Shown here piece by piece: positions 11,753 through 56,753 of a DNA stretch of 64,000 nucleotides. The position numbers were made by a program, and so were the translations under genes. Below the pieces are notes generated by a model. The model saw only the letters and a program-made list of their open reading frames with translations. It was not told the DNA's origin and did not search any database. The DNA lies in NCBI GenBank assembly GCA_964255285.1, contig CAXUUL010000018.1, positions 1-64,000 of the forward strand. Reading direction: 5' to 3'. Source of the stretch: Ionaspis alba (Eukaryota). The stretch's first letter is position 1, and the number at the start of each line of letters is the position of its first letter.

Positions 11753-14220
11753 CTAAAGCATCATACTCCTCCTCCTCCCCGCCGCCCTCTCCGCCCGTCC
11801 TAAAGAAGCATCACTCCTCTCCCTGTCTCCCTTCATATCCGCGCTCCCACTTCTCATATGCCCACCTACCGTCTTCTCACCCGCCGCCGCAACGGAAAGC
11901 GTGTCCCGCCTCCTCCCACTCTTAATCCTCTCTCCATGCTCCCCTGCTCTGCCAGCTTCATTGCCCAACGAGTGAGGAACACTGGAAACCCTTCTCGCCG
12001 CTCTACCGGCTTTTGGGTCCTGCGGAGCGGGAGCTGCGTCCGCTGGAGAGGAGCCGTCGAAGGCAAAGACGTCCTTTTCTGGTTTTGTGTCAACTACTTG
12101 ACCGCGGCTGCTGGCTTTGCGTTGTGTGCTGGTGGAGGCTAGAGCTGCGATGGTCGTGCTTGTTGCGGAAGTGGACGGCGCGAGGTCGGAATGGAGATCG
12201 GTGGATGAGGAAGAGGAGGAAGGGGGTAGGGTGGAGACGCGGCGTCGACGATCGGTCATGATGCTTGAGGGGAGGTTGGAGATGTTGTCGACCTCCTTGT
12301 CTTTCTCCCTCTCTTTCTCTTGGCCGTCTTGGACGCCTGAGCTCCGCCGATCGTTCGCATTGGGCAGGTTCTTCCATCGTGCTTCCCATCCCTCCTGCTC
12401 CTCCTCCTCTTCTTCCTTTTCTTTCTTGATTCTGACTTCTCCTACCTCCAAGCCTTTGGCACCCTCGCTCACGGCTCGTACGCTTTCTATCGTCACGCTC
12501 CCCGCCCTCGATACCCGCTCGTCTGCGCTTACTGCATCCACCAATTCCTTCCCCGGTCGACGCATCTTATCCCTCAGGTTCGGCTCCGCATAGCTTACGC
12601 TTCCTCGTTGCCGGCGTGATGGCCTTGCTGCTCCAGTATCTAACGGTGGGGGAGGGGGCGTGTCTCGCGGAATTGAGACGGGAGGTGTAGGAGATGGATC
12701 TTGGGGAATGGAAGTAGTGATGGGTTTGGGCTCTGGAGCAGGACGGATGATTTTGGTAGCGGGAGTCTCGGTTGCTGGACGAGAACGATCGCGATTGCGA
12801 TCGCGTGGTTTGGCTAAATCGTCTTTCTTGAGGCTGGCCAGGGCGGCGTTAAGCGTTGGTTTTTGAGGCGAGACTACTGGGTCTGTGTTGACGGTTTCTG
12901 GGAAAGTAGCTGTTAGCCGATTGTATTGAACGATAGGGATAAGTGGACGAAAGAGCAGACATACTCTCTCCTAATGCTTTGCGCGTTGCTGTGATGGCAG
13001 CCACTGCATCACGAGGCTTCTCTCTGTGCGCAACCTTTGCTACAGCTGAGGCTGCTGAGCCATCACTGTTGTCCTCGAGAACGGAATTGCTGTGTGAAGA
13101 GTTTGTCTTGTGGTTGGTGACTAGCTTTACTGGTTCCACTGAGGTTTCAGTGCGCCGATTGAAATGGAAACCATCTTTGTCTGTTGGTGCTGGAATAGTA
13201 ACACCGTCGTCCTCGTCCCTCGCACTGAGCTTTCGCTTTGCACCTGATTTTAGGGGCTGAGCCGACATGGATGGAGCAGATACGGAGGTATCATGCAAGC
13301 TTCCCGAGGTTTCTGGCAGGCTTGTCCGTGGCTGCTCCCGGCTGATGGAACTCTCTCGGCGTTTTCGCCGAGTTTCAAGGTTTGGAAAGAGAGCTTCTGT
13401 TGGTACGTCCTCGGATATACCTTCTGTGGAAGTCCTTCGCTGATTGTCATGCTTGACTGGATCGCCTTCATCGAAGTGGGCGACTGGAGGAGGGCCGAGA
13501 TCAGGAGAGTCTGCAACATTGTTCGGGTCAAACATTCCCAACAGTTCTTCCGCACTAGACTACCGTAAGTATTGGTACCGTCCCAAACATGATTGTCTAC
13601 ATACTCTAGTGTCTTCCGAGGAAAGTATTTGTCTTCTACAATGGGAGGAAGCCTCCCATCTTGACCGCCCGTCACTTCCGATAGCGTAAGAGCATTCTTC
13701 CAATTCCTCTGATCTGGTGATCGCTTAGGAGATCTCCGCTCAGCACGTTTCCGAGTCGGTGATCTGTTTTGCGCGGCGCTTCCGTGTGTTCTTCCCAATT
13801 CACCAACAAGTGTTGACAATTCGGCGAGCTTGATCTCGAGTTTGTCCTTGACGTTCCCAATGCCTTCCAACGTAGATCGCTGAGGGCGACTGTCCACCTC
13901 CTGCTGTAGCTTGATATTTCGTTCCCTTAGTGTAATATTCTCGGACAGCAGGCGGGAAGTTTCGGCTTCGAGGTTCCTTATACGAAGAGATTGTGTGGAG
14001 TTTGCACTATTGCCTGTAAGTAGAGTCGCCAAAATTGATGTGGTATTGAACCAGTGGTATAGCAACTCACCGAGCAATCTCCCTGTTTTGCCGGATAAAT
14101 CGCCTTTTTACTGGAGTAGGATGCTGTATCAGTACCAGATCTGCATAAGTCGTTGAAAACAGTAGACTCACAAGCATCAATAGATTCGACTGGGACGACT
14201 GGCTCGTTCAGTCTCGCCAT
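11753..14220 (-). CDS. sgo1: Shugoshin (centromeric cohesion protector), 5 exons
   Basis: Spliced N-terminus MARLNEP..DA/LKRRFIRQNREIAR/ANSTQSLRIRNLE forms the coiled coil. C-terminal SGO motif RPSRRQRGSVSYAEPNLRDKMRRP at ~12555-12625. GT-AG introns join the ORFs. Confidence 0.95.
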
Positions 14221-14574
14221 GAGCTGTCTCCGCAGACTATGGGCTCTGCACAGCGATAGTCCTTTGTTGTCAAACTTGAATAGTAAAGGAGCCGCAGCTC
14301 AGACCACAATGTTCACGCTGTCTAACTCTCCAGTCCTAGGGAAGGATAAATATTCTGGGGTCTGGAAAGTAAACAAGACGGATAATACCTAATCCAGACC
14401 GGTCAATCGCTTAAGGATAGCGCTGGTGTAAACGCCTCAACCGCGTCTGGATAACCAACAACACCACAACTTGTACTTATTGCTCTCTATCTGTCTTCCC
14501 CTTAAGATCATCGTTCCGGCTGTACATGTCTGAACACAAGTCGCCAGCAGCACTCTCTCATCTACTTCTTCAAG
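14221..14574. promoter_or_regulatory. Bidirectional sgo1/dad2 promoter with forkhead site
   Basis: 354-bp head-to-head gap. GTAAACAA at 14369, GTAAACG at 14428, MCB-like CCGCGT at 14441. Confidence 0.6.
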
Positions 14575-15111
14575 ATGGCATTCCAGAATCGTACATTGGC
14601 GTCCAACCTCCGCCATCCTTCGATTGGAGGACCATCAAACTCTTCGGGCCAATCACCAGCTTTGGTCGCTCGTATCAATGAAAAGAAAGCCGAGCTCGAA
14701 GACCTTAAACAGCTTCGGGACTTGAGTGGCGGCCTGGCTACCCAGATGGAGGTCTTGGAGCAGAAGTTATCCACGTTGTCTGACGGTACCGAAGGTATAG
14801 AAGGAGCAAAGCAGCAACAACTTTGGTAAATAGTGCTGACTTGGAACTTGCATAGCCGTAGCTGCGGTTTTATCGAACTGGCATAACGTGCTTAGAGCTA
14901 TAAACATGGCATCGAGTAAGGATTTTGTTTCCAATATTGTGCCACTGCTAATCATGTCGTGTCAGTGAAATTGCCCAAGCCAAGAAGTAATGGAACTGAC
15001 GGGGAAGCCTCGAAAAGCGCAGAATTGGACGTTTTGCTCCCGCAGACACTGGTTCGTATACCGGTAGAGCAAGAGACCCATGACCCTCGGAATGGTATTA
15101 ATCAATCATGA
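14575..15111 (+). CDS. dad2: DASH/Dam1 complex subunit Dad2, 3 exons
   Basis: LVARINEKKAELEDLKQLRDLS...LSTLSDGTEA/VAAVLSNWHNVLRAINMAS/...LPQTLVRIP; stop TGA 15109-15111. Confidence 0.95.
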
Positions 15112-15388: not shown

Positions 15389-16110
15389 ATGTCGCATCAA
15401 TTCAACTATCCCAACGTCGAAGAGCAGGAGCTCCGTGTCATCCAGAATGCTGTCGAGCACACTGTCGATCCGTGGCCCAAGCTTGATATCGATTTTCCGC
15501 TCGATCCTAGGCTACAGTACAGTCCTACGAACGCCTCCTGTTTTGACTTGCCGCGTACGTGTACTTGATGAAAACTCTACGGCTGTCACTAACACAATTG
15601 ACAGCCGAGAACTACATCACTGCCTATAGTTTCGAAAACTGGATGCCTGGTGAAGCACACGCAAGTGCTCCGAACCACGAACATCAACACCCTCTCGACA
15701 ACAGTCAAACAACCTCCGGCGGTGTTGGCGGTACCGGTATGTCCGATCTAGGTACTCCTAATCCGATCCCAAGCAGCGTTATGTCCTCAGCCATCGGTAC
15801 CAACGCGATCACTCCTGAGCTCAGCACGTCGGTCTCAAGCGGCATGACACGTCCAGTCACTAGCACTGGCACTCTCGGTGACCATGGCGAAGAAAAATTT
15901 CCCTTCGTATGCGGTTTGTGTCACGATTGTTACACGCGCCGTTATACCGTCAAGAGGCACTTCCCGGAATGCGTCAAGAAACATGGTAATGATGGAAACC
16001 TCGCTTGGGACTCCCACCCGTCCTGTAAGCAAGGCCGTGCTTACAAGCCGAGAGGTTCAAATAGGTGGAATCGACGTGGTGAGTCGGGCCAAAGCGTCCA
16101 CGGAGTCTAA
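15389..16110 (+). CDS. Small protein with atypical C2H2-like zinc finger, 2 exons
   Basis: ATG 15389; intron 15555-15604 (GTACGT..CTAAC..CAG) joins in frame to ORF 15559..16110. Motif FVCGLCHDCYTRRYTVKRHFPECVKKHGN...WDSHPSC. Confidence 0.75.
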
Positions 16111-17017: not shown

Positions 17018-19088
17018 TCACGTATTCGTACTATCAACCGCTACCTCGACCTCAGTTCCCACTCCTGTTCCATTCTTAGCTCCCGCAGAAGCACTCGCCT
17101 TCTTGGCCCTCATCTTCTCCGCCCATTCTCGACTAGCAATCCTCCCCCTCTCTGCGGCCTCAACTCTGGCTCGCTTCGCAGCCTCCTCTTTCTCCTTTCT
17201 GTCTTTCAGTCGTGCTTCTTCCTCGACCTTTCCCCGCGCAAAGACTTCTTTACCGGAGGCTTTCGGGAAAGTGCTAGCTCGCTTGCCGGCTGCTCCTGAC
17301 TTGTCTGATGAATTCATGCGAGGTGCTGAAGCATTAGGTTTGGCTTTGGCTTCGCCTTTGGGAGCGGCAGGAGTGGTCACCGCAGCAGCACGAGCGGTCA
17401 CCTTATGTTGAGTCTTGGGCGCAGTATGACCGTCCACGTTTGTAAGAGTGGAGCCTGTGCTCGAGATGCGAGCTAGAGGGCGTATCACTGGTCCCTTCTT
17501 CGGCGCATTGTCACCACTGCCACTGGCAGTCCTTCCCGCAACGCTTAATCGTGACCGACTACTAATCGTTCCTCTCACTTCCACAGCGGGTGCCACACTT
17601 TTGCGCACAGGTCGCGCTTTGAATTGGCGTGCTTGGACTCTTTCGGCTTCCTCACGCGCCAGACGCTCTTCCCGGGCTGCCTTGAGCTTTTGAGCGACAG
17701 CTTCACCGGGAAGGGTGAATGTGGAGCGAGTGGGAGGTTTGCTTGACTTGGCCGGAATGAATGGAGGAGCTAGCAAGGAAGAGACACGTGGCTTTTTGGT
17801 AAGGAGGTTTGCAGTATTGGTCTGGTCACTTGTCGTGGATGGTGGCGTTGATTTCTCTGAGGTAGCGGTTGCGGTAGTAGAACCGGATTCGGCAGCAGTA
17901 GACTTGGTAGTTGTATGACGAGTCACAGAGGCTCGTGTCTTAGAATTTCGTAAATCACCCTTCGGCGTGACAGCCGGGCGTCGACGTGCACCATCCTGTG
18001 GAGTAGTAGCGGCTGGTTTCCGCATTGGCGCAGGCACTTTGGCATTCGATTGGCTTACCGAAACCCTCTTTCGTGGATCTGAGGTAGTCTTGCTTATGGG
18101 AGATGTCTTTGTGACCTTGCCAATGACTGGCTTCCTTGCACTTCCAATCTTGCGTTCCTTGGTTTCTACTGGCATTGACGTAGTTTCGTCTCGTTTGAGC
18201 TGTAAATTAGGGTCTTTTGATGCCTTCACTGGCGATTGAGGTTCATCCGGGAGCTTAGGAAGGGCCTGTCCAATCTGCTCCAGTGCATCTTCCAAGGCAT
18301 CAATAGCTTCTACCGAATCTTCGATACGTAGAGTCAATCTGACAGGTGACCTTGAGACAATATGCTCCGAGAAAGAATCATCCTTGACCGCGCCAGGCGT
18401 GTCACCAGCAGGCTTCTGTTGTGCATCCCCGTCCACAGTCATCTCTTCAGTCATTCTAGCTGGTGTGCGAGACTCGATGGCTCCGACAAAAGAGTCGTGA
18501 CTCTTGCGATCCATGCTGAAACTTGAATCCGAAGATACGTGAATCGCGGGATCAAAGCGGGGTGTGTGCGCTTTAGGTGATAATATTTTGCGTGCAACGT
18601 TCACCGCCTTCGAAGTTGGTGTGATGGGTCGCTGGTCATGCATCGGTACCTGGTTTATTCCTGTGTTCGAGTGTGTTAGCGCCTCCATCCTAGGCACCTG
18701 AATAGCTGGAAGCCCTACCACCAGTGCTTTCCCTCATCAATTCCCTGCACGCCTCTTCAACAGCTGAACTTGTCGAACTCTCATCGTCGTCTTCCAGCAC
18801 TTCCGGCCGGTTCTCCTGCTGAGTTTCGTTCTTCTTACGACCTTGCCTGGTTCCTTTAGCTCCCTTCGTTTTCTTCCCTTGCGCTGTTCTTGTCTTCTTC
18901 ATAGGCTTGCCAGCAGCCACGAGATCTTCTCCTAGTTGGATGACCTCTTGAAAAAGATTACCCGTCACTTCACCAAGAGGCGTGCGCTCTTGGCCCGGTG
19001 TCGTGGGTAGAGGTGTTTCCGCGGCTAAGTTGGCCTCATCCTCGAGGATCATATTGCTTCGGAGAGCGGCACGTGTAACACGAGGCAT
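17018..19088 (-). CDS. Basic, largely disordered protein with TPX2-like C-terminal motifs; putative microtubule-associated protein, 2 exons
   Basis: Intron 18718-18661 joins the two ORFs in frame. Conserved-looking blocks RIEDSVEAIDALEDALEQIG and PFIPAKSSKPPTRSTFTLPGEAVAQKLKAAREERL...FKARPV; C-terminal ARVEAAERGRIASREWAEK. Confidence 0.85.
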
Positions 19089-19231
19089 GGTTAAACCTTA
19101 GTTCAGGTGCTGATGCGTTTTAATCAGAGAAGATCGAAGAAATGCTAGCTTTTGGGCGCAAAGTGCTCTAAAGTGGATTGAAAGAATTGGGTGCTGAATT
19201 GAGCATCAAAATTCTGTAAGAAGCGCGATGG

Positions 19232-19375
19232 TTGTTTACCATTTCTGCATAGCAACGCAAGCGAGTACACGCGGGCGCGTCTTCTGATGACCGTTGTGGC
19301 CCCGGTTTGCCGATTGAGGTCGGGTCTGAATGTACCCTGTAACGCGAGTGGACGTGATTCTGTTTCACAACGCGT
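19232..19375 (-). promoter_or_regulatory. Forkhead plus MCB sites upstream of the TPX2-like gene
   Basis: TTGTTTAC at 19232-19239 (GTAAACAA on the minus strand), ACGCGT at 19370-19375, further ACGCG at ~19269 and ~19343. Confidence 0.55.
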
Positions 19376-20189: not shown

Positions 20190-20596
20190 GCTTGAGCGGT
20201 TGGGTAGGACAGCAGGATGTGGTGACCGCAGCTGGAAGAAGCTGCATTGGATCGTGCATCATCCTGTGATATCTCCTAGGGGAGCCGCTACGCCTGGAAA
20301 ACCTTGACCAGGCGTGAGCCTTCATCTCGCTAGTTGTCGGCGTCGCCGTTGTATCTCTCGAAAAGATCAAAATGCGTGTGTACAAAAGATCTTCTGGGCG
20401 TTGATTACCTCAAATGGCATGTGGCCGCGGCGTAGGCGACATAAGGATAGGCGAACAGCCATATCAGTAACCAAATATGAGCCACTTGTGTATGATCTAC
20501 TACCCCTTATGTAGACATTTATTCAAACATGGAACGTACCAGGATATTAGATGCTAATGGATCGTCAATAGCAGGATACCGCCTCTTGAATATTCC

Positions 20597-21234
20597 TCAT
20601 CTAACACCACCTCTCCTTTCGATTCCGGGCATCTTCTCATAAGCATTTGGGCTCCCCTTCCTCGCCTTGCCCTCGCCTTTCTTGCCTCCGCAGTCATGCC
20701 CACGCCCATGTTCGCGTCTACTCCCTCTCTTCCTTTCCTTTCCCTTCGCCATCCTCGCAGTACCATCATCATTTCCACTATCGCTCTCATCATCCGAGGA
20801 CGACGACGATGAATCGTCTTCAGAGGAGGACTCCCCAACGACGCGGGGTTTGTGGTAAATGCAGCAGACTACCAGTTAACAACTATTAGCACGAATCCAG
20901 AAACATCCTCACGCCTATCTGCACGGATCGATCTGCTCAGGTGGACATGTAAAAGCACACCTTTCGAGCTCTTCCGGCCCAAGCCTTCGTTATCAACCAC
21001 ATCCTCCGCCCACCTTATCCCTTGCCGCGGCACATGCTCTCCTCGCAGTCTCAGTACCCCGATCTCAGGTAGGGGATCGGATGCGGTCACTGTCTGCGTT
21101 GTGCTACCCACTCCGGCACGCGTATTAGGACGCAGCGAGGTATGAAGAGGTCTTGATGTTGTGGGGCGATGTCGTGGAGAGTTCGAGGTCACGGTTTGGT
21201 TGAGGGATGTGGCGGCCGGGGGAAGGGGCATCAT
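20597..21234 (-). CDS. ypi1: Protein phosphatase 1 regulator Ypi1 (inhibitor-3), 2 exons
   Basis: LRLRG...IRWAEDVVDNEGLGRKSSK/VCCIYHKPR..GESSSEDDS...PNAYEKMP. Intron 20960-20869; stop at 20597. Confidence 0.95.
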
Positions 21235-21747
21235 AGGCGCTGACAGTTCTTAAGAGAAGCTTGGATGTTAGACAGTGACCGGATAGTGTAGACCAGTTTC
21301 AAATGTAAATTAGCTAACTCGACCTAGTATTTTCCCGTCGGTCGAAGCGGGAAGACGAATTTCAAGAGTGGGATGACGCTTTGGGAATGGTGGCGGTCGC
21401 CAAGAAAATATTCTTACGAGGCCGAAGAAGGTCCTTCGACAGTGACAACAAAGACGCATGAGAGTAACTTCAGCAGATGTGCCCGAACTTCTCTGGTCTG
21501 CGTACACAACAAATCATACGATACCAGCTTTGAGTCGATATACTAAGCTGAAAGTTATATTTGGTACCTAATACCTTGTACCCTTCCAAAGCATCCAGAT
21601 TGAGGTGAGGCATAATTACGGGCGTTGTCTATAATCTAATCAAACTGCTAAATGGCTACAAACTTCCGCCCAAACCTCTTGCGAAGACACGAAAGTCGAG
21701 CCACAGCTCCCGAGCTCATTAGTAAGTCTTACAAGGGAATTCGAAGT

Positions 21748-41612: not shown

Positions 41613-41619
41613 TGTTTAC
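41613..41619 (-). promoter_or_regulatory. Forkhead site ~95 nt upstream of mzt1
   Basis: TGTTTAC on the plus strand (GTAAACA on the mzt1 sense strand) in the 276-bp divergent gap. Confidence 0.45.
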
Positions 41620-44099: not shown

Positions 44100-44341
44100 G
44101 GTTTTGGATAAAGCTTGGACAAAGGCAATGAATTCTTCACACCGGCAACGATGGCGTTAGGCAGGCATGGTAAATATACCCTACAGCTCCAGTGTCCAAA
44201 AAGGCTGATCCAATTCTGATATCTGTCGAGTCATCGTGTATTTCAACTAAATATGCCAGAGAACGCGAACTAATAGCTGTCGCAATTACAATCACAACCG
44301 CCACCCCCACTGTAAACATCTACAGCAAAAGCGCCTCCATA

Positions 44342-45064
44342 TCATGAATCTATGCCGCCCGCTGGGCTGGAATGTGAGCCAGATCCTTTTCGGCTCGCGA
44401 ATACCCTCTTTAACCACTTTCTCTTCCTTCCCTTTCCCTTTCCCCTGCCCTTCTCACTCCCCTCATTCTCCTTCTCTTTCCCCTTTCCCTTGCCCATCCC
44501 CTTCCGACAGTCATCCAGTCCCGCAATCACCTCCTGGTAAGTACCCACTCGCCGACCAGGCAGCAATCTCCCCCCATTCTCCATCTTGGGGCCTTTATCA
44601 CCACCCCCCGCTGAGAAATCAGCCGATGTGGCTGCCGGCAGCCCTCCCCGCGGGATCCTCTCAATGTCCAGCTCTGGACATTCGGACGCAATGAGCGAGG
44701 TCAGCGTCCAAAGCGGCGGGCGAGAGTGCATTCGTGGCTCTTCTAAAGCCGGTCGGTCCTCAGGTTTCCCACCCAGGACGGGCGGGCCAGCGGCTGCGGA
44801 AGCGGAGGAATGCGAAGGCAAAGAGCTGATCCCAGGCCCAGATGACGCAGAAGGTGAAGCCTTCCCGTCTTCCGAGCGAGGAACACCACTTCCAGGTGTC
44901 GTGGGTGTGTCTTGGCCACCCGCCGAGTTCGGAGTCGCGGGAGGGGAGGGGGGAGCGGTTGCAGATGCTGCCTTGGTCGAAAGAGATGGTAGGAGGGATT
45001 TGTGCGTTATTTGGTAGAAGGTTATTGGGTTTGAGGATGACGGGGCAGAAGTGGAAGGAGACAT
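44342..45064 (-). CDS. Orphan low-complexity basic protein
   Basis: GC-rich open frame from ATG 45064 with short structured-looking blocks (ITFYQITH, PPLWTLTSLIASECP, TYQEVIAGLDDC) and an NLS-like RKRKWLKR. Confidence 0.5.
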   Translation of the reverse strand: MSPSTSAPSSSNPITFYQITHKSLLPSLSTKAASATAPPSPPATPNSAGGQDTPTTPGSGVPRSEDGKASPSASSGPGISSLPSHSSASAAAGPPVLGGKPEDRPALEEPRMHSRPPLWTLTSLIASECPELDIERIPRGGLPAATSADFSAGGGDKGPKMENGGRLLPGRRVGTYQEVIAGLDDCRKGMGKGKGKEKENEGSEKGRGKGKGRKRKWLKRVFASRKGSGSHSSPAGGIDS

Positions 45065-46455
45065 TCTGGTTGGGGTGAGTGGTGAGAATTTTGTGGTGGA
45101 TAGTGGATAGGAGAGATTGGACTGTGAGGTGGTATTCGAAGTGGGTGGTCGGGTGAAATGGCAGACTGTGTGCTGTCTTCGGTGTGATGGGTCTAACAGA
45201 GGGTCGATGTGGTTGTCCTTTCGATGAAGATGGATTTGTGCGTTGAAGGTGCAGATTGATTGCTGGTTGGGTTTGATTCGGGAGGAGAGACACTGAGATC
45301 TATATATCTGGGCTCGAGTGGTCAGTGCATTTGTTCTCGTGATGCAGAATCTGCGATAATGGATTTGTTGAGAAAGGTTATTTGCATGGCTTCGGCCATT
45401 TGTGGTCTTGAAAGTTTGTTTCGGATTACCGAGCCAAAGTATGATCTTTACAATTCTCTTACAGCTTTGGAGATCGCAGCACTGGAAAGAACACATGTTG
45501 AAGACAGCCATTGTCTCGGCCAGAACTAAGGTCTTGGTGGTTGCGGAGATACCACAAAATCGGAAAGACCCATCACGGACGTGGACTATACCGTGGTTCG
45601 GGGTAATGGCAATAAGTGTATGAGTGAGCCACCCGGTACTTCGAGGTTGACCCAAAGCTTCATCGATAAGGCAAACCCTAATTGAGCCTCGAAAGCCCTC
45701 GGCTGCCCGATTTCCTGACAACCTTCTTTGGCAACTGGAAGGGTACTCAATCTTAGGGTTCTGGAGTGCTTGCATCGTTTATATGCTTTATCAGGGCTTA
45801 GGGAAGCCGCGATTCGTTGACCTTTCCGAAAGGATAAAGTGCTTCGTTTCATGCTTGAGCCAAAGTAATCGCCACTGGCATGAGCTAGTTTTCGCAAGGT
45901 CCAGGCTTTCCCTTTTGTCCTGAAAGGTGAACTTTTCCTGTCGCCAGCTTCTATGCCTTACTTCTCTAGAGAGTCCACTACGTGTTCATCGCGGAGATTT
46001 AGGCATACACAAACACTATCCTGGATAGCTCTAGGTTGGATCAGGACCGAGGTGTCTCTAGTAGTAGAAGGCCTGTGGAACCCAAATTAGAGGCATATCC
46101 TTGAGACGAGCAATGGCAGCTTTGATGGTGCGGGTAAAATAGCTTGAATGAGCTCCTATCTTCAGACGAGGCATTTCAAATCTACTGCTCTGCAGGTTGA
46201 CACGAAGGAGAGGGTGACTGCCAGAAGAATTCGTCTCATTGATCATGTGAAGACATTTGGAGCATGAGGCTTCAGTTACAGCATACTAACAGTTCTAGAA
46301 AAGGGATCATATATAGAATTGCCTAGGTATTGGTACCTACAAGTAGTACAAAGAATTCTTGATATCCGTGGGGTATCACGCTGGATCAAAACAAGATGAA
46401 ACGCCCTCCAATCGCAAAGAACGCCGTGATTTACAATCCCAGAAAATAGACAATA

Positions 46456-47403
46456 TCACGAGGGCACAACCAAAAATCCTGCCGCATCCGACTTTCCCGG
46501 CTCCGCAACCTTTGCCCCAGCGCCCTCACCGGCGCTGGCCTTCCCCTCGACCTCATCGGCAAACGAGACCTTCCGTACCGGTTTTGAGGCGTCAGAGGGG
46601 CTTGAGGGTTTCGGCGGCTTGCCGACCACCGCCTCCTCCGTCACCCAGAATCTGACAGGCGGCGGCCCCTGGTCTGCCCAGTACATTTGGCACAGCTGCA
46701 GGATTTTCGGCTCTACGTGTTGGTAGACCACCATATCCCGCGGCTGTAGGACAATTGCCAGTACCATGGTCTCGTCACCGGCTAGGGCCTCATCTTCGCT
46801 TGTCGAGCACAGGGCGATGTGCGGGCACGTGAAATTGGAGTCCCAGAAGATGTCCCCTGCTTGTTTGAGGACTTTGCTCACGTGCCCGCTCCAGCGATTG
46901 TGCCCAGTGACTTTCCAGAGGCGGGGAGCTGCAGAGCCGTTTCCTGGAAGGACGCTCTGGACGAGGCGGGACGGGCGGGAGGCGAGGCTGTCACCGGTCT
47001 TCTCGGACTCGAGGGATGTCGTCCTCGAAGAGGTGGTTGCCGCAGTCGACCACGTGTCAGCTGTGACCGTGCTGATGCAACCAAGGGAATCGTCCCTTCG
47101 GTGGAGGTGGGAGAAGGATCTGGCTCGGAAGGAGTCCTCCTTCGTTGCTTCCGAGCCAGGTCCTCGAACGGTCGTCGTCGGCGAGAGACAGTTCTTGTCC
47201 GACGAGCGCAGAGAAGAGGACGTCGAAGAGCGGAGGGAAGGTTGGGCCGCGGAAGTCGCGGGAATTTGAGCTGCTGACTCCGCAGCGGAGGATTGGTGTG
47301 TTGTCGACTCAACGTCGACAGGGCGATTCAACGTAGGTGTACGTTGGGAGCTCTCTCCTTTCGAGCGAGAAAAGAAGCGGGACACGCTGGAAAGGGCAGG
47401 CAT
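46456..47403 (-). CDS. Orphan protein with Ser-rich N-terminus and a compact C-terminal domain
   Basis: 315-codon frame from ATG 47403; globular-looking segment LWKVTGHNRWSGHVSKVL...VLAIVLQP...VRFWVTE; RKVSF (PP1 RVxF-like) near the end. Confidence 0.6.
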   Translation of the reverse strand: MPALSSVSRFFSRSKGESSQRTPTLNRPVDVESTTHQSSAAESAAQIPATSAAQPSLRSSTSSSLRSSDKNCLSPTTTVRGPGSEATKEDSFRARSFSHLHRRDDSLGCISTVTADTWSTAATTSSRTTSLESEKTGDSLASRPSRLVQSVLPGNGSAAPRLWKVTGHNRWSGHVSKVLKQAGDIFWDSNFTCPHIALCSTSEDEALAGDETMVLAIVLQPRDMVVYQHVEPKILQLCQMYWADQGPPPVRFWVTEEAVVGKPPKPSSPSDASKPVRKVSFADEVEGKASAGEGAGAKVAEPGKSDAAGFLVVPS

Positions 47404-48053
47404 GATGGTCTTTGGTGTGGAAAGGGAAAGGACGAAAGTAGAGGCAGAAATGGTTCGGAATAAGTATGGAAGGGTAGGATTTGTGCGATGGCTCTTCTGG
47501 TGGAGTTGCTCTTTAAATTGGAAGGAAGATGATGAAAGTTGATGATCTCTACAATGGGGATGGGGCTCATATATATACTGTCCCCTCGATGGCTGGACTT
47601 GCTCGAACAATCACCATGGGCGTCTGAATGCCCAAAACAGCAGGGTAAGAATGGCGCAAAAATTGTACCAGACAATACAGTCCCCACTGAGGCAAACTCG
47701 AAAGACCAAAACAGTACTTAGCTTTATCACAATTAATTTACCGACAGCGGAGTTCAGACTAGAGAGGTAGCCAAGACTTGCAAACTGCGGTAGGTCGTAA
47801 CACTTTCCACGGACTCAAGACTGCGCTGCAGTGAGAAATGGTCTACCAGATGGGTTACGACCCGCAAGGATTTCAATATTCTTGGACGCGTGGAGAAGAA
47901 TGTACTGGAACCAGAACACCCCTACACAGTGAACCACCGGCCGCGCGACGCATCTCTTCTACTGGCTCAAATAGCTTCACAACTCATCACCATTCGTGGC
48001 TTCGAGGAAGTATAGCGAGCTAGGTTTGACCCACATTTCCTTTCTCGATGATC

Positions 48054-51000
48054 TCAAAAGCCTGACTTGCGGATAAGCTTCTTCTTTTTGAACGTACCTG
48101 GACGAGCTCCTTTAGACCCAGCTTCTGGCTGACTTTGGGTCATAAAGGCCTGGACCGACTGACTGCTACTCGCTACCACAGCAGACTGGCTTCCGAAGAC
48201 TCTGGAAGGAATTGTTTGTGAAGCCAACGCTTGAGAATTCTGGCGCTGCCTTTTTTTAGTCATCCTTCTTTGCAGCTTGGACATGAATGCATTTTCAACA
48301 CCGTCTTTCTCATCTAGAGACGATAACGCGCGGTGCGTCTTGTTCCAGTCGTATGCTTCAGGATTTTGACCCACTTGCCAGTGGCTGACTAGCTTTGACA
48401 TCGATTCGGACAACGACGGAGGGGTTTCTAGTGAAGTCAAGCGTTTCAGTCGGTCATACGACAAATCCATCTCGGCAGTGTGCGAGGACATCGACGGCTG
48501 CGAATGCAACGAAGGTGTCGCTTCGGGTGTTGGCAGCATATTTTGGGATTGTTGGGGGGTTGTACTAGTCGATAGTGGTTCTGAAAGGTGGGGAAAGAAC
48601 TTGTCCTTGAGAATCTCTTTGCCTTTCCCGGTTGGAGCTCCAATTGAAGCCTTGCGTCTCAGTGGTAAGTCATGTCGTCTCCCACTCATGTCCCGAGTTG
48701 ATGAATTAGTATCGAGCTCCTGGCACATACTTGGACCACGTTGCAGTCCGTGTGAGGCAAGATAGATTTGTACAGCAGCCTTCCTTATTTCCTTTTCTAG
48801 CTTTACTCGTGCTCGACTCGGCACGGCATGAGAAATTCCACTCATCCATAGATCAAGGAGATTTTCGTATACGTCCATGAGCATTGTGCTTTCTTCGCGA
48901 TCCACAGAGTTTCGGTTGTAATCGATTGCTGCAGGGGTTCGCAGGGGGTGAACTCTCAATCGATCTTCCAGATCATGCTCCGAGTCGTCACACGAGGGCA
49001 GGGGTTTACCGTCCTCATATACGTAGTCAAAAAGTGTTTGTAGCATTTGTGAGCCGTTCCCAACATCATTAAAAGAACTCTCGGGTAGGATTTCGAACCT
49101 GTTGAAGTTATCAGTGTGGAATGTATAACTTGTGAGCGTAGCCTACGTACAGTGGCCGAATCCCTTTTCCTTGAGAACTCATGGAGCCAATAACGTCCTC
49201 CACTAACTGTTCGGAAGACTCGGGAGCCTTGATATCTGATTGCGTAGACACCTTTCGATCTTCGATCTGATCCACCAACCATTCAAGTTGGGAAGTCCTC
49301 GAGTTGGCTGCAGTTAAATACAAACGCTGTCCAGCTCGTGTATGTCCCCTCAATGGCTCAGTCTCCATGTGATCATCTACATGCTCATAAGCTTGATCTG
49401 GTACCACAAAATCGTCATCAACTACTCTCGCAGCGCTCTTCGATATCTTGGCTTTGTCGATGCGATTGCATGTTTGATGCTGCACGTTATCTCCTCGCGC
49501 GGCCCAAACGTACACGTGCTCATGAACTGACAAATCGTGGTACAAGGCGAAGAACTTGAAAATCGAGGTTTCTGCTCCAGACGAAGAAACTTCATTATCC
49601 AGTCCGTGAGCGAAAGATAGGCTGTCTTGATTGAGAGGTAGCACATATAGAGCAGCCAGTGGGGGTGTGGACTTCGTGGACTGCTCACTCTGCAGTCGGT
49701 TTAACGTCACAAGAGATGGGTCTGAGATGGATTGAGGTAGGTTCGAAGTGGACGACTGAGTGAAGGTATAGCATGTCACGATGCTCGAGATTCTGCTATA
49801 AAGAAACGCAAAGGCTACTTAAGCCAATTAGCCAGCTTCCAGCAGAACGAACATGAATCTCTATACCCTCCACGCTACCTGTCAAGTGCAACTGCAAACT
49901 GATATCGTGCGGGCTGCGAAAATGCCTCCCGGAGAGTAGAGTTTTATCAGTTGCGTGACCGAACCTTGCGCTTTCCTCTTCATACGATGATACATTCAGC
50001 CAGAAGATACGAACCGTCGTTAGTACGAAGATCTGAGAAACATTAAAAGGACTTCTCCTGATGTCGAGAACCCAATCTGACACTGAATCGAGATCAAGCA
50101 GCGAGGACTTTAGCAGTCGCGAAGGACTTGTGGTACAATACAGAGCTACAGTCCTTCGACTTGCTGCCACGATAGTAGCACCGTTCCGTACCCAGATGAC
50201 AGTGCCCCACCCGTCCGCGTTGTCGATAGTCTCATCCGCCTTGTCAGGTCGCAAGACTTGTCCTGATGATCCAGCCTGTAAAGACCAGAAGCTTGAGTTG
50301 TTTGCACGGTCCTCTATAGTCCAAGTAGACCAACAACCTTCAGCATCCAGAATCGCAAACTGACGAGCATTCCATGGATTAAACGCAAAGTCAACATGGG
50401 CTGCTCCTCCAGTGCGTGTTGTAGTCAAAGCCAGAACACAATTGGCGTCTAAACGCGATGGCTCGTTGTGTAATCTTTGTCCAGAACTTCCAACATGTGT
50501 ATTCGAATACACAGGCACGACTCTCATTACGGGTTTAAGGATTGATATGACGCCGGGTGCTCTGATGGCAAGCCAGTCGCCTGATTCGTCGCCTCCTTCG
50601 GAGAAGCATATCTGTTGAATAGAAGTCCCCATCCCTGCCCATAACACTTGCTCTGTGCGCACGAATGTTGGAGTGGAAAACTGGGCTCCTTCATGGCCCT
50701 GCCACTTGAGTGGCTTTTCGTTTAGGCTTATAAGCCGAACGACATCTGCATTTGGCCCACTAGCAACAGCAGCAATATCAATGGTCTTCTTGTGGTAGCC
50801 TCCTATTTCTAGTTTTGCGGCCTTCCCTAATGCGAGAAGTGTAGTTGTCAGGGGATCTGTCAGGATTGTTGCATCAATGACAGCCTCAGACACTTGAGCT
50901 AGTTGAGGCAGGAGAAAAGTTGCAGGAGCCAGGTATGGATTTACTGCAACAAGATCTTGTATTTGTGTAATTCGATCGGCTGCTCGATAGGTGGCACGTG

Positions 51001-51219
51001 GGGCTTGGGGTAGCCTTGTTGGATTGACTGTGACAATTGGTTCTCCGATTGCTCTCAAGGACCAACCTGCTCATAGTCAGTGGATTATCGTGGGAGTCCA
51101 GACATTCAGTACTCACGTATATGTCTAGAGCGATTGAAAAGCCATTGCTCCTTCTCTCCATCATAGACAGCTTCGCCCAAATGACCGTAGGAAAGGTCAC
51201 TTGGGTTTACTCTGATCAT
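48054..51219 (-). CDS. rrn6: RNA polymerase I core factor subunit Rrn6-like, 4 exons
   Basis: N-terminus DLSYGHLGEAVYD..WLFNR; HVDFAFNPWNARQFAILDAEGCWSTW; QIFVLTTVRIFWL; RHFRSPHDISLQL; HWQVGQNPEAYDW; ends KKKLIRKSGF. Confidence 0.9.
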
Positions 51220-51462
51220 TCGGTCGCCGTCTCTGTCGAACTTTGGTCCTGGAGGTTGAATTGGCGAGGATAGGCATTGTAGGAAAGTACAGTATAAAGT
51301 TGTAGACTATAGAGCATAAAGCTGGTCACCGTCTACCATAAGTGATGGTCTTTTGTGATATATCACGTAGTCTTGTAGCAAACTTCACGCTGATCTTGGC
51401 GCGTCCAGTGCTGCACAGACCAACGCTTATCTACAAGCAGCTATTGCGCTAAGAAGTCCAAA

Positions 51463-51470
51463 GTAAACAA
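51463..51470 (+). promoter_or_regulatory. Forkhead site 120 nt upstream of spc25
   Basis: GTAAACAA in the 363-bp rrn6/spc25 divergent gap; GCGCGT near 51399. Confidence 0.5.
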
Positions 51471-51582
51471 AAGAATCCGGGCCAACTTCGACCGCAACGA
51501 CATTCACCACAACATCGCCCACATTCGTCATCCCTACCACATATCTTAGGCTTCAATTTTTCAGCCGATGCTGAGGCCAACA

Positions 51583-52419
51583 ATGGCGACTCTTTTCGAA
51601 CCTTCGCTCTCAACGAGCACAATGCGCCAGTCTCTCTCGGCAACGACGACTTCAGCGGCTGACTCGCTCCCAAACATCAATTTTGGCTTCGATGAACTTC
51701 GCGATCGTATGGCCCGCTTCACAAACCGCTTCGACAATTTCATCGCCGAAGGTCGTAAACGTGTCCTCGAAGAGCGTAATCACTTCCGGCTGAATGTTGC
51801 TGAGCTGCACGGTATGTCGGCCTCGGCCCTTCCTTCTGGCTTCCACAGTGGACTGACTTGTACCCTCATTGCAGAGGATCAGAAAACGAAAAAGCGTGAC
51901 CTTGAAATCCTCTCGCAGAAAGCTACCACGCACAATCATGTCCTCGCCAAAGAAGCTGCCGAAACGGAGGAAATGCACTCGGCTATCGACGCTATCACGA
52001 TCCAACACACCGCGCGGTCCCATCACCGAGATACGCTTCTCGGGCAGAAAGCCGCTGTCCAAAAACAAATCGCCGCGCGTCTCGACGTTCAGCGGCAGCA
52101 CGCAGCCCAATTTGATTTTCAAGCAGCGTTCAATGGACCGGAGCTGGACTTCTGGGTCGAGTACTTGGGCCTTCGGATCGAAGGCGCCGGAATGGCTGAT
52201 CGATTGAAGTTCGTCTTCACACAGATTGACGATAGGGATTGGGAGAGAGAAGCTTGGTTTGAGCTTTGTACCGAGCGGAGGGAGTATGAAGTATTGCATT
52301 GGGCACCTAAAGTCGAGAAGGAGAGGGTGGACGAAGTAGTAGAGAGATTGAATGAGGGACGAGATCTAGGAATTTTTTTGAAGAGGATGAGAGAACTCTT
52401 TGTGGAGGCAACGAGATAA
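51583..52419 (+). CDS. spc25: Ndc80 complex subunit Spc25, 2 exons
   Basis: LPNINFGFDELRDRMARFTNRFDNFI coiled coil; RWD domain PELDFWVEYLGLRIEGAG.DRLKFVFTQID..FLKRMRELF; 63-nt intron 51812-51874. Confidence 0.95.
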   Translation: MATLFEPSLSTSTMRQSLSATTTSAADSLPNINFGFDELRDRMARFTNRFDNFIAEGRKRVLEERNHFRLNVAELHGMSASALPSGFHSGLTCTLIAEDQKTKKRDLEILSQKATTHNHVLAKEAAETEEMHSAIDAITIQHTARSHHRDTLLGQKAAVQKQIAARLDVQRQHAAQFDFQAAFNGPELDFWVEYLGLRIEGAGMADRLKFVFTQIDDRDWEREAWFELCTERREYEVLHWAPKVEKERVDEVVERLNEGRDLGIFLKRMRELFVEATR

Positions 52420-52914
52420 TGACCGTGGGCGCAAGATGATGATATGGAAAGTATTGGGGAACACCCTCTAGGTCTGTTGAGTAAAGTGAGCAAATACGGG
52501 TAGTTAGTCAAATACTTTGAACCACTCAAGGCGAGGTCGTAGGAACTTTTCATCTATCATTACTAACTATCACACACTTCGTGCCAACATAAGGAAGGTC
52601 GTCCTGGATATCTCCGCTATGCTCCAATATTTCGAGTGTTCAAGATCAACCCTGTTTACCCCTCGAAGCAAACTCAGGTCTATCTACTATGAACTCCAGG
52701 TTCACTTATTGTCACAGCTGGAAAGATCAGGCCGCCATAACGTGTGAGGAGTTTGCTGGAAGCGTTGGAAACAAGTGACTGTACCTCAGACACCGTAAAA
52801 GTCCCATCCATCCAGCTCGTCCAAGATTGCCGACATCGAGCGTGGTGCGGTAGGCAGAGAATCTTCTCTCTTTGGAGGAGGTACCGAATACTCGGAACGC
52901 AGTTCCAGATCGAG

Positions 52915-55900
52915 TCACAGCTCGTCATCTTGATCGATGTCCGCTGGTTTGAGCAAGCCCCCGACCTTCTTGGCTCGTTCCATTTCAGCGTCTTTCACAG
53001 CCCTTTGTTCAAGATCACGATCCTCCGCGAAAAGTTCAGCGTTGTCACCAGAGAACTCTTTCAAACCAATCAAGAAGTCGCGAAGATTGGTCTTGAATCT
53101 GTTGATGTCGCTCTGATAGGTAAACAGCCCCTCAATGAACTGCTGCACTTGTATTCTGTATTTGTTAGCGCAGCCATGTAGAATCTTGGAACTTCAATCA
53201 CGTACGGTTGAAGATTTGGGAATGCGGTGTGTAGAAGGTTTCCGACGAATCCGTATAGGAAGTCTTTGTTAGAAGTACCAGGCTGGGCTTGTGCTGGTGT
53301 GTAGATCGGCTGATTGATTTTCCCCGATTCGATGAAGTAGAACATTCTCGCCAATAGCATGGATTGTGTCTTGAAACCTAAAGAACTGTAAGCATTTTTA
53401 CCAGTTTGTGATAGTCGCCGTACTGACCAGCTTTGTGATCGGTGTCTGTAAGCACGAAGAACACATCCTGCAAAATAGAGATGAAGAACTGCTGGAAGAA
53501 GGCGGTCGATGTCTGCTGGTCAGTCTCGGCCATGTTGTCGATGAGTTCGATGCACATTGTGAGACCAGTGTTCTCGACTTCACGATTGTCGTGCTTGCTA
53601 GCCCATAAACAGGAGTCGATGACAAACTTGAACTGACGCTGATCAAGCTTCAGAAGTGCCGGGAAACAGTAGAGATTAATTGCTTTCAGAAGCTTGAAGA
53701 ATTCGACGCGATGCTCTGGGTATTCTGAGAAGTCCTTGTTTATCATCTCCAAGGTACACTCAAAAACGTTCTCCATGATGGTAGGGACTTTGTCTTCCAT
53801 CAAGCTCTATTTACGCGTCAGCGGGTGATTATGTTGAGTCGATCGTCGGTTCTGACCGAGTGCTTGGAGGTCCGAGGGGTCCAACGTACATGAAGCTTAG
53901 CAATGATGGTTGTCATAACATTCAGAACTTCCGCGTCACGCGCGTCTGGAACATTGCGATTGTAATCCACCAGTACCGCCTCCAAAAGAGGAGGAACGAT
54001 ATTAGAATTGACCATGTCGAGGTCGTCGGCCTTCTGAACGTAGCTGTCAATGAGCTTTAGAATCTCTTTCTTGATCGTCCGTAGTCCGCGGATTCTAGGT
54101 GTTTTCGTGGCGATAGTACCTGTAACGGGAAGTCAACCACGGTCTTGTAGTTTTTGCCGAAGAAGCAGTAATAACCTTCCCTCTGCACGCAATCTGATAT
54201 CATTGTACTTGTAGCTCGATACATCGACAGCATGTCAAGATAAATACGCCCGATCTGGGGGTAGAAGTAGCTTCCGATCGATGAACAGGCTGCAACATTG
54301 GTCTTCATGATATTGCCGACTATCTTGATGGTCTCGCCATCCTGGAGAATGGATGGATCCTGGTTGGCAGAAGAAATGATCTGATCCCACTGAAAACGGG
54401 ATCAGTCTCTCACTTTAATGACAGGTCGGGCGTACTTACTGCCTGGTTTGGATAGGACATCAATTCTCCAATCAACCTCTCCTGGGTGCCTTTCTGGCCT
54501 TGAGCTGAGATCATGTACCCACAAGCTTCATAGAATGTATGCACTTGCTGAGGTGATAAGTCGCAAGTGATCTTCTGCATGTTACGGACGATTTCCTCGA
54601 TGAATGGCTCGCTCTCGCCGGGTTGCAAAGCAACGAAATGCCTTTTGCATTTGTTTGCAATCTTGATGAACGTATCGCAGGCCATATCTTGAACACCTGT
54701 AAAGATTTAGTATCTTGGAAAATGGGGAGATATCTCAAAAGGATGCAATGAACCTTCGTGCGTTTCGTGCATGAACTCGAAAAGTTTATTGACCACAGTC
54801 TTCAGAAACTTCCAGTGAGCTTTGAGAAACCGGGGATACTGGCCAACAATGTACATGATATTGCTCGCAACAACCGCCTTGTTGTCCTTGCCACGCTTCG
54901 CTTCGGTCAAGCCCAGCAGGTCTTTGATAACTGTAACCAGGAAGCGTTTCTCCGTTTCCTCATTCATTGCCCCGGAAATCGAACCGATAGCCCAGCAGAG
55001 GGTGTTGCATCTCTGCCAGGACCATTCTGAGTCATCCACCTGTCGGGCGAGCTTCTCCGACATGATGTTCTCCGTATCGACCACATCTAGGTGAGTGAGG
55101 TAGACTAAGACTTCGCGGCTGGTCTTGTACAGCTGGATCGTGTCACTCTCCTTAACAAACTCACGGACGATCTCCCCCTCATCGTTCTCTACTATCAATA
55201 CTTCCTCTGGTCGTACCATGTTCTCGATCATTACCAACCGGAGGTGCGAGAGAACCTCCTCGTATTTGTGCTTACGTAGTGGATAGTTGGCAAGAACATT
55301 CGGATGCGGGGCACCACCATTTGATAACCCACTAACGCTCATATTGATCAGTGGATTGATGTCTGTGATGGGCAACTGTTGCATCTCCTCATAGAGCTCT
55401 TGCACAAGTTTGGTCCAGTATTCCAGGCATATCTTGAATATCTCGCGGTCTTCAATCTGTGATATTCGTATGAGATAGAAGTGGGAGTGGGTCAGGTAAT
55501 CGCGATTGGGGAGGTTCTCGATGAGCTAAACATGTTAACCAAAAGTCGTTCGACGTTCAAGATCTGAGACCCTACGTTGATGTGCATTGTGAAGAAATTA
55601 CAGAGAAATAGAGCTAGGTTCTGCACGAACTCTTGATCCCTCGAATTGCTCTTAGGATATGTATCCTTGAGACTCATGCTTAGCGGAATGGTCTTGGAGA
55701 CAGAAGTTACCACTTCCGTGAACATCTGTATGAGCTTCTCATCATAGGCATATTGCGGCCCAATCTGGACGCCAGCAATTTCTGTGAGGCACTTCAAGGT
55801 GATATTCCGGAACTCGGGCTGCTCGAGGAATCTGGTCCTCAGTGTGTCGATGATCGGTGTCTCGAAGATATAACCCAGAGGAATCCAATTTAGAAATCGA

Positions 55901-56753
55901 AGCAGTGTCTCCAAGGTGGCCCTGACCAAGCTCGTTTGATTGGCTGTGTTCAAGACTTCCGAGCAGAGTCCAAAGATAGCCGAGAACTCGGTAGACATGG
56001 TGTTCTTCAAGTTTTTGGTCTTTGCTGAGGTCATCTGGTCCTGCGAAAAGTCGAAAACCTCTTCCGACAACAACCGGAGGATGGCCATGTTGTTCTCGCA
56101 AACGGTCAAGTTCGTATGACAGGAGCTAATGATTTCATTGATGAATGTTGGCCAGTTGTGGGGCCATTCCTGTTTGAGGATAGACACAAGAACCAGATTC
56201 AACTTGTTCAGAAAGGTTCGCTGGGTCTTAAGGCTCTCTTCAGTCTCCGAGGTCTGTACGATGAAACTGACGACAAAGTTTCTAATGCCTGCCGAACGAA
56301 AATTATCAGCAGAGATAGCATAGGTATGTGGGGGCATTCTCACCTTGGCATTGATCTCGTGGTAAGACCTTCCATCTAGTCATGATCACGCTATCCAGGA
56401 CTTGTAGACCAAGATCTGTCTACCCTTAGCACTGGACGAAGTTGATCGTCGACCAACACATACATTTGGTCTGAGGATATGTAGCCTCTTGTAGGATTTT
56501 GTCCACCAGTAGCCATGCGTCCGGGTCCTCCTTGAACTATGATTTGAAGTGGTATTAGATAACGCCATAGATGGAAGGAATGTAGTCATACCTGGTTCAT
56601 CGCTGCCTGAGCTTGTTTTTGCTTTAACACAGGCGTCAGTGCTTATTGTACGAAACTAGAGATGTGTTATCAGGGTATAGTCCCTACCGCATCACCACGG
56701 CTCTCGTAGAACAACCGGACAGTGGTGTCCAGCTCCTCCACAGACATCACCAT
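52915..56753 (-). CDS. crm1: Exportin-1 (Crm1/Xpo1/KapK), multi-exon
   Basis: [102 protein letters not shown]; ends [14 protein letters not shown]. Confidence 0.98.

Follow-up and report, generated by a model that had tools for sequence, protein, structure and literature searches.

The window analysed here is a whole stretch of 64,000 nucleotides (nt) from the fungus Ionaspis alba (assembly GCA_964255285.1, contig CAXUUL010000018.1, positions 1 to 64,000 of the forward strand). The subject is a set of seven genes within it, sgo1, dad2, a gene labelled 'TPX2-like', ypi1, mzt1, spc25 and crm1, most of them connected with chromosome segregation, together with the heptamer GTAAACA that stands in several of their promoters. 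In our reading, to which we give a probability of about 0.7, these promoters carry working forkhead-type elements on an inherited linkage block, and co-regulation would come through each promoter's own sites, not from the status of the genes as neighbours. GTAAACA(A) at sgo1/dad2, at the TPX2-like gene and probably at spc25 would be bound by fungal forkhead factors of the Fkh2/Sep1/Hcm1 class, at about 100–200 base pairs (bp) ahead of the start codon. The TPX2-like site would act beside an RFX-type half-site, with MBF-type ACGCG 34–62 bp upstream, and kinetochore and spindle genes would, on this prediction, be transcribed at a set time of the cell cycle (S/G2-M). Both the binding factor and the timing of expression are what we infer from the DNA sequence, and the regulatory reading is of an already known kind. 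The four sites on which it turns are as follows, with distances measured to the start codons inferred in this analysis:

14369 to 14376, plus strand: GTAAACA in the 8-mer GTAAACAA, 206 nt before the dad2 ATG (sense); it is antisense to sgo1, whose ATG is about 149 nt away.
19233 to 19239, minus strand: GTAAACA, sense to the TPX2-like gene, about 145–151 nt before its ATG.
41613 to 41619, minus strand: GTAAACA in the 8-mer GTAAACAT, sense to mzt1, about 94–100 nt before its ATG.
51463 to 51470, plus strand: GTAAACA in GTAAACAA, sense to spc25, about 99–105 nt before its ATG.

An earlier note on this DNA had placed GTAAACA at these four positions and on these strands, about 95–210 nt from the start codons; positions and strands are as it claimed, and the distances come to 94–206 nt. 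Its expectation of about 8 copies in 64 kb has to be replaced: dinucleotide shuffles of the window give 5.1 (standard deviation 2.1), and the actual total is 13, beyond the four named and reached by 0 of 100 shuffles. Among 7-mers of the same composition (mean 7.5), the total of 13 takes only rank 10 of 210; that is to say, the excess in count is partly a word-composition effect. The placement, unlike the total count, is exceptional. When hits are counted over 250 nt of promoter for each of the seven flagged genes, GTAAACA takes rank 1 of 210 composition-matched words, with 4 hits that cover 5 genes, where the mean is 0.21, and the motif is thus common to 5 of the 7 flagged genes. Moreover, the longer word GTAAACAA is found at just 3 of the 13 sites (14369, 19233 and 51463), each of which is a claimed promoter site.

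Simple chance, in which a common A-rich word fell four times into an accidental neighbourhood, would fit the unremarkable rank of the total and the mzt1 site, which has no supporting context, and it gains from the fact that the gene set and the motif were both chosen after the sequence was read. The first rank in the flagged promoters speaks against it, and the fixed position and orientation of the motif in otherwise unalignable promoters, described below, rule chance out at sgo1/dad2 and at the TPX2-like gene, so that as an account of the whole it is very improbable.

The comparison with relatives that bears on the forkhead reading started from an alignment of the TPX2-like protein, with which a metagenome scan yielded 24 loci (given here as L numbers). 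Seven of them hold the trio of sgo1, dad2 and the TPX2-like gene, namely L001, L002, L004, L005, L006, L007 and L015. Judged by the TPX2-like protein, the closest named fungi are Stereocaulon, Cladonia and Usnea for L001, L004, L005 and L007 (45–55%), Phialophora, of the Chaetothyriales, for L006 (48%) and Geoglossum for L015 (39%), L002 standing farther off. The window and these seven loci make up the eight regions in which the promoter common to sgo1 and dad2 was compared:

14221 to 14574, no strand assigned: divergent sgo1/dad2 promoter of 354 bp, with the two genes head to head.

The head-to-head arrangement is found in all seven loci as well, and the spacing between the two ATG codons is 234–390 bp in 8/8 fungi in which either gene was seen. 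GTAAACA occurs in 7/8 of the orthologous intergenic regions; six copies share the strand of dad2 and stand at −157 to −230, and in L015 it is inverted, at −224. A survey of all 7-mers in the eight regions made GTAAACA the most widely common word, the next non-overlapping word being present in 4/8. Among 300 first-order Markov simulations, the best-shared 7-mer reached 7/8 regions in none and 6/8 in two. The intergenic DNA as a whole is unalignable except for two short pieces some 25 nt from each other, of which the first is the island GTAAACA(AAGC). In L001, L004, L005 and L007 a second block reads TTCTCCGC..(C/T)TAGCG and lies about 10–30 nt after the forkhead-type site, and the window retains only ATAGCGC of it (14416–14423), 43 nt past the site at 14369. 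To our knowledge, no factor is associated with this block. The word GCGCTA also occurs 17 nt ahead of the spc25 site (51446).

The conserved island can be read in another way, since in L001, L004, L005 and L007 it reads GTAAACAAAGC and includes AACAAAG, a word present in 5/8 of the regions. The element might then serve another factor or programme, that is, an HMG-box factor on AACAAAG or a meiotic forkhead (Mei4-like, FLEX-type) acting on sgo1; shugoshin is linked to meiosis in fission yeast, and Mei4 binds an element with a GTAAACA core. The equivalent stretch is GTAAACAAG in the window, GTAAACATC in L002 and GTAAACAGA in L015, and what all seven regions share is GTAAACA, not AACAAAG. Moreover, the same core precedes dad2 and spc25, genes required at each mitosis, and the TPX2-like gene, presumably another of this kind, and its RFX-type and ACGCG companions are typical of mitotic or other cell-cycle promoters. 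We regard the alternative factor or programme as distinctly unlikely, and the mitotic forkhead reading of this promoter is retained.

The pair also shows the features by which conserved divergent gene pairs are recognised: sgo1 and dad2 diverge from a spacer well within the 1-kb limit, the arrangement persists across species, and the two have a common conserved element, GTAAACA. The single site in the 354-bp promoter probably serves both genes, and because one site would serve both, it would explain why the pair stays together. Among the genes considered, just the sgo1/dad2 pair has an evident reason for staying adjacent, namely its short shared promoter.

The promoter of the TPX2-like gene was compared in a set of 12, that is, the window and the 11 loci with a placeable start codon. 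GTAAACA stands in the sense direction at −109 to −168 in 5/12 (the window, L002, L004, L005 and L007), and L013 has one antisense copy at −293; the background is 0.13/kb on both strands over 339 kb. Two further elements lie upstream of the site in the window:

19249 to 19256, minus strand: RFX-type half-site GTTGCTAT, placed 9 nt ahead of the forkhead-type site.
19269 to 19280, no strand assigned: MCB-like core pair ACGCG-GG-CGCGT, with further ACGCG at about 19342 and about 19370.

The RFX-type half-site, written as sense GTTGCYAT, occurs at −164 to −183 in 6/12 promoters (the window, L001, L004, L005, L007 and L013), and L015 has it at −285, making 7/12, where the background is 0.077/kb. Between it and the forkhead-type site downstream there are 0–12 nt, as in the GTTGCTATGTAAACA of L004 and L005. 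ACGCG is found at 5.6/kb in the 12 promoters versus 1.43/kb in the background, which is about a 4-fold enrichment, and in the window, L002, L004, L005 and L007 it precedes the forkhead-type site by 34–62 nt. The TPX2-like gene converges on dad2 in the window and in L006 and follows dad2 in tandem in L001, L002, L004, L005, L007 and L015; the site travels with the gene despite this inversion relative to dad2. A motif named beforehand, at a fixed position and on a fixed strand, is significant in these promoters on the counts given. The significance rests on that prior naming and on the fixed place and strand, because an arbitrary 7-mer shared at 5/10 promoters is not unusual.

The spc25 promoter has a comparable composition:

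51400 to 51499, plus strand: spc25 promoter module, with CGCGT at 51400–51404, the site GTAAACAA/GTAAACAAAAG from 51463 and GCAACG at 51494–51499.

This layout resembles that of the TPX2-like promoter, and a working forkhead-type element at spc25 is plausible. Scans with a CRM1 exon of genome contigs and viral contigs found no orthologous spc25 promoter. The mzt1 site lies in a 276-bp promoter (41520–41795) that is common to mzt1 and a CHY/RING-type zinc-finger gene (ATG 41796), the two being head to head, and the forkhead reading at mzt1 appears weak. Sequencing run X1 is probably the source of the assembly; run X2 contains the same organism at low depth and another fungus, and over 40500–57500 contigs of that other fungus bridge mzt1 and the CHY gene and, via a 17-kb contig, spc25 and crm1.

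A number of results weigh against the forkhead reading. The ypi1 and crm1 promoters contain no GTAAACA, and 9 of the 13 sites in the window are found elsewhere than in the claimed promoters, namely within coding sequence, between the 3′ ends of genes, or before a zinc-finger gene. At mzt1, the promoter is shared with the CHY zinc-finger gene, which is non-mitotic; there is no ACGCG box nearby, and the only GTTGC core lies far upstream, by the CHY start. GTAAACA is also missing from the TPX2-like promoters of L006 and L015, and L001 and L013 keep the half-site with a degenerate forkhead core (GTGAACA and GTAACAA). As to the strength of the counts, 13 of the 24 loci were excluded from the TPX2-like promoter set, their first exon or start codon not being locatable; L001, L004, L005 and L007 are related lineages and not fully independent; and 150 of 300 simulations hold some 7-mer in 5/10 TPX2-like promoters, so that unbiased discovery is not significant there. 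Finally, the L006 sgo1/dad2 region has no GTAAACA. The L006 intergenic region (L006:12135-12385) contains ACGCG four times, twice as the full ACGCGT, and no forkhead-type site, and the only CGCGT among the other sgo1/dad2 promoters is in the window; the L006 promoter looks like a case of transcription-factor site turnover inside a conserved bidirectional promoter.

Taken with these points, the earlier note's reading of GTAAACA as the forkhead element of mitotic genes is supported at sgo1/dad2 and at the TPX2-like gene by footprinting in relatives; it is plausible at spc25 and weak at mzt1, and ypi1 and crm1 have no site to which it could apply. The earlier observation as a whole is partly confirmed and its interpretation partly supported.

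The second part of our reading, the inherited linkage block, concerns the order of genes in relatives. Besides the trio in seven loci, ypi1 lies near the block in L004 and L006, and L006 holds TRAPPC13 / TPX2-like, dad2, sgo1, ypi1, crm1 / bZIP, with the five inner genes within about 11 kb. Ecl1 (window 4865–5380), a non-mitotic gene of a TORC1-inhibitor family, is a neighbour in L001, L002, L004, L005, L007, L012, L016 and L023; it is thus kept in 8 loci, including three without sgo1 and dad2, and is as conserved as the genes of the block. For named genomes the distance between protein accession numbers was used, which is only a proxy for gene distance: the TPX2-like protein and CRM1 are on the same contig, 5 accessions apart in Usnea, 16 in Pycnora, 107 in Agyrium and 247 in Cladonia, and in Icmadophila they are on different contigs. 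In L010, L012, L016 and L023, whose TPX2-like genes are close to no named relative, flanks of 4–10 kb contain no Dad2, shugoshin, Ypi1 or CRM1 beside the TPX2-like gene. Rrn6, at 31–33% identity, is too poorly conserved to serve as a synteny anchor.

That the genes are kept together in relatives is therefore true in part: the trio in seven loci and the five genes in 11 kb in L006 agree with it, and the decayed crm1 linkage in Agyrium, Cladonia and Icmadophila and the absence of the block from four contigs of more distant fungi do not. On this comparison, the neighbourhood is best described as an old inherited linkage block, and selection for clustering is not demonstrated. The block of Ecl1, sgo1, dad2, the TPX2-like gene, ypi1 and crm1 would have been stretched or broken in each lineage by local rearrangements, that is, by local inversions and insertions, of which the window gives two likely examples, the inverted TPX2-like gene and a small zinc-finger gene at 15547–16110. 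The latter, a C2H2-like gene (FVCGLCHDCYTRRYTVKRHF), separates dad2 from the TPX2-like gene and is absent from 24/24 related loci; because of this absence, it was probably brought in by the event that turned the TPX2-like gene round.

A stronger claim is that of a selected functional cluster, in which proximity itself, through a shared chromatin domain or replication timing, would aid co-regulation and the sites would mark an organised mitotic regulon. The gene order of L006, with five block genes consecutive among the recognisable genes and flanked by the unrelated TRAPPC13 and bZIP, would suit such a cluster, and so would the short accession gaps in Usnea and Pycnora. In addition, GDE1, a transmembrane protein gene, mrpl3 and coa1, which lie between ypi1 and crm1, are absent from every locus together with the other window open reading frames (ORFs) of at least 60 amino acids, and ypi1 and crm1 recur. 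The larger gaps in Agyrium and Cladonia and the separate contigs in Icmadophila count against it, as do the unrelated neighbours in L010, L012, L016 and L023 and the equal retention of the non-mitotic Ecl1; crm1 and ypi1 are moreover pleiotropic and without a forkhead site. Segregation genes make up about 2–4% of genes, and at this base rate chance alone would give about one such 30-gene window per genome, many windows having been screened. We consider the selected cluster unlikely. The earlier note's co-regulated mitotic cluster accordingly survives as an old linkage with the motif on 5 of the 7 genes; as a cluster proper it is weakened by the loss of crm1 linkage in places and by the equal conservation of Ecl1.

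The most far-reaching form of the idea holds that an ancient neighbourhood of crm1, ypi1, sgo1, dad2 and their partner has been selected since the common ancestor of Lecanoromycetes and Eurotiomycetes and is wired by forkhead/RFX/MBF promoters, the TPX2-like protein being an unrecognised Pezizomycotina-wide spindle or kinetochore protein (at least 650 representatives). We hold it to be unlikely, about as much so as the selected cluster.

The preferred reading, of forkhead-type elements acting promoter by promoter, can be set beside known systems. In Schizosaccharomyces pombe, chromatin immunoprecipitation sequencing of Fkh2 targets gave the forkhead consensus GTAAACAAA in 68/72 cell-cycle targets, and the targets also bear GTTGnCntggcAAC, a motif belonging to the RFX factor Sak1, the half-sites of which correspond to the old 'PCB' box (PMC4538799). 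The promoters described here agree with the Fkh2/Sep1 and Sak1 promoters in the GTAAACA(AA) core, the adjoining RFX-type GTTGC half-site, the proximal position and the mitotic nature of the genes; at spc25, GCAACG stands 24 nt after the forkhead-type site. Unlike the S. pombe system, the window has added ACGCG boxes and half-sites only, with no full palindrome.

In budding yeast, it has been reported that Hcm1, likened to human FOXM1, activates motor, spindle-pole-body and kinetochore genes (PMC4603928), and Hcm1 is the predicted regulator of about 30% of the budding-yeast members of a conserved core of cycling genes (PMC2323241). The Hcm1/FOXM1 regulon is of the same functional class as sgo1, dad2, spc25 and mzt1. 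The assignment of the sites to a 'Fkh1/2, Sep1 mitotic wave' was thus right in spirit, but the link of Hcm1 to chromosome-segregation genes is the closer precedent. Filamentous ascomycetes are described as having about four forkhead genes, with four in Magnaporthe (PMC4174854), and in Beauveria the cell cycle is disturbed when Fkh2 is deleted (PMC4424799); there are no forkhead genes within the window.

A cell-cycle promoter cluster has been inferred in Neurospora crassa, with Mbp1 and Fkh2 motifs as in yeast and with Rfx1/Tye7 signals, and some 40% of the genes in that cluster are annotated as 'hypothetical' (bioRxiv 10.1101/2025.02.27.640643). This too is a filamentous ascomycete with the same three motif classes (MBF-type, forkhead and RFX) and with many hypothetical members comparable to the TPX2-like gene. 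The two cases differ in that the Neurospora cluster is a genome-wide statistical inference in another fungal class, whereas the present one is a site-by-site footprinting of two promoters in lichen-type fungi. As for the arrangement of genes, fungal gene pairs that diverge from a short spacer and are conserved tend toward functional relatedness (PMC2871058), and sgo1/dad2 are like these pairs in their short spacer, related function and shared conserved element. The main text of PMC2871058 contains 0 mentions of DAD2, SGO1 or shugoshin, and a literature search on GTAAACA forkhead sites at kinetochore genes gave nothing on point.

The genes to which these promoters belong are as follows, from left to right in the window:

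11753 to 14220, minus strand: sgo1 (shugoshin), several exons; Pfam Shugoshin_C at 1.6e-10 and Shugoshin_N at 3.7e-9 (ORF 11753–14107).
14218 to 14220, minus strand: sgo1 start codon, set by a conserved 'GCCAT' column in alignment A2; the first exon ends at 14220.
14575 to 15108, plus strand: dad2 (DASH subunit), at least 2 exons; Pfam DASH_Dad2 at 1.2e-13 (ORF 14506–14829).
17018 to 19088, minus strand: 'TPX2-like' gene, two exons, start 'MPRVTRAALR'; conserved Pezizomycotina protein with no Pfam family.
20554 to 21234, minus strand: ypi1 (PP1 regulator); Pfam PPI_Ypi1 at 6.9e-10 (ORF 20869–21249).
41250 to 41519, minus strand: mzt1 (MOZART1), about 3 exons; Pfam MOZART1 at 7.2e-12 (ORF 41250–41555); start 'MPSAEQIQQ', ATG 41519.
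48054 to 51206, minus strand: Rrn6, with Pfam Rrn6 domains; divergent from spc25.
51568 to 52419, plus strand: spc25 (Ndc80 complex); Pfam Spindle_Spc25 at 1.6e-26 (ORF 51550–52419); ATG 51568.
52680 to 56753, minus strand: crm1/exportin-1, many exons; Pfam CRM1_C, CRM1 repeats and Xpo1 (53070–56379).

The start of dad2 reads 'MAFQNRTL' from the ATG at 14575, and its second exon (ORF 14920–15108) matches L004 and L007. The Pfam gathering score is exceeded by all six of Shugoshin, DASH Dad2, Ypi1, MOZART1, Spc25 and CRM1/exportin-1. Of the seven labels originally given, these six (sgo1, dad2, ypi1, mzt1, spc25 and crm1) are secured by Pfam, and 'TPX2-like' is upheld by no search. The count of about 7 in about 24 genes is fair, 23–24 genes being counted here, provided that crm1, ypi1 and the TPX2-like protein are admitted. 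The remaining genes of the interval have no mitotic link; among them are the zinc-finger gene, GDE1, the transmembrane protein gene, mrpl3, Coa1, a DUF2293 gene, a mitochondrial carrier, a CUE protein, the CHY zinc-finger protein, Rrn6 and several unknowns. The window takes up nearly all of a 64,151-bp metagenome contig of a lichen-type (Lecanoromycete-like) ascomycete, and the closest named relatives of its proteins are lichen-forming Lecanoromycetes. The crm1 product has 88–96% identity to fungal CRM1, and a CRM1 exon is 93–96% identical to those of Xylographa, Umbilicaria, Acarospora and Pycnora. Searches of the window for tRNA genes and Rfam families gave no match.

The TPX2-like protein has 627 homologues, 0 of them with a Pfam domain, and 653 representatives at E ≤ 1e-3; the nearest named ones are in Xylographa, Lambiella and Trapelia, with 41–44% identity. 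A Pfam search of its ORFs (17018–19097) with the threshold relaxed to E ≤ 1 gave no family, and among 27 relatives of the family that were screened, 0 match TPX2 (PF06886). A profile search of PDB sequences with the family gave nothing relevant. In an Atlas search, a TPX2 cluster came no better than rank 11 (score 0.75), and the same search with the motif region alone gave nothing; a profile search of 1.84 billion representatives returned, among the matches listed, the family itself only. A literature search on fungal TPX2 gave nothing useful. Membership of the TPX2 family was therefore rejected, the Pfam search, the 27 relatives, the PDB profile and the Atlas being all negative or uninformative. 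The gene should not be filed as TPX2, and its label expresses only a motif resemblance, through FKARPV.

What the family does contain is a repeated module, 'TFxLPGEA ... charged helix ... FKARP' (alignments A1 and A3), present in 1–5 copies depending on the lineage; in some members there are 2–5 matched stretches. Further features are a highly conserved C-terminal helix, an acidic helix RIEDSVEAIDALEDAIE and an N-terminal 'MPRxTRAALR ... RxPLGE..N'. We take the FxLPGEA...FKARP module to resemble the F..F..T..RA ... FKA.P modules of TPX2, and the FKARP modules look like microtubule-binding repeats; the N-terminal RxPLGE..N resembles a destruction box of the anaphase-promoting complex (APC/C). 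That is to say, the likeness to the TPX2 family (PF06886) lies in the repeated module F-x-L-P-G-E-A ... charged helix ... F-K-A-R-P, and the difference is that the window protein has no hidden Markov model, profile or Atlas support. The protein is predicted to be mitotic because of its promoter and its long-standing place by dad2 and sgo1. With this cell-cycle-type promoter and old position, the family is a candidate new mitotic protein, and an action in mitosis is what we infer for it.

Lichen-forming fungi are hard to grow or synchronise, and we know of no experimental knowledge of their cell-cycle transcription. The present comparison indicates that the forkhead/RFX/MBF promoter code of yeasts may be readable straight from lichen-fungus genomes, and three predictions follow from our reading: that one shared forkhead-type site holds the sgo1/dad2 pair together; that a widespread ascomycete protein, the TPX2-like one, is cell-cycle-regulated and probably mitotic; and that factor sites are exchanged from class to class, ACGCG boxes having taken the place of a forkhead site in the sgo1/dad2 promoter of the Chaetothyriales-like contig. 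Taken as a gene cluster, the case is a modest one, and its most useful by-product would be the candidate mitotic TPX2-like family, which has no Pfam entry.

Some of the other GTAAACA copies and parts of the window may be recorded here. One copy lies at 15249 (plus strand), about 300 nt upstream of the small zinc-finger gene. Two others, at 9517 and 9708 (minus strand), have no assignable gene and lie just past the stretch 5788–9300. This stretch has a strong AT skew and no Pfam match, its frame 5788–7347 runs through single stops, and it looks non-coding; it also includes a gap of 100 N at 6322–6421. The idea that the sites at 9517 and 9708 form the promoter of another mitotic gene was rejected, as the ORFs at about 5788–9300 look non-coding and match nothing. 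A second 100-N assembly gap lies at 62516–62615, not far from the contig end, and the guanine–cytosine content falls to 0.42 over the last 2 kb.

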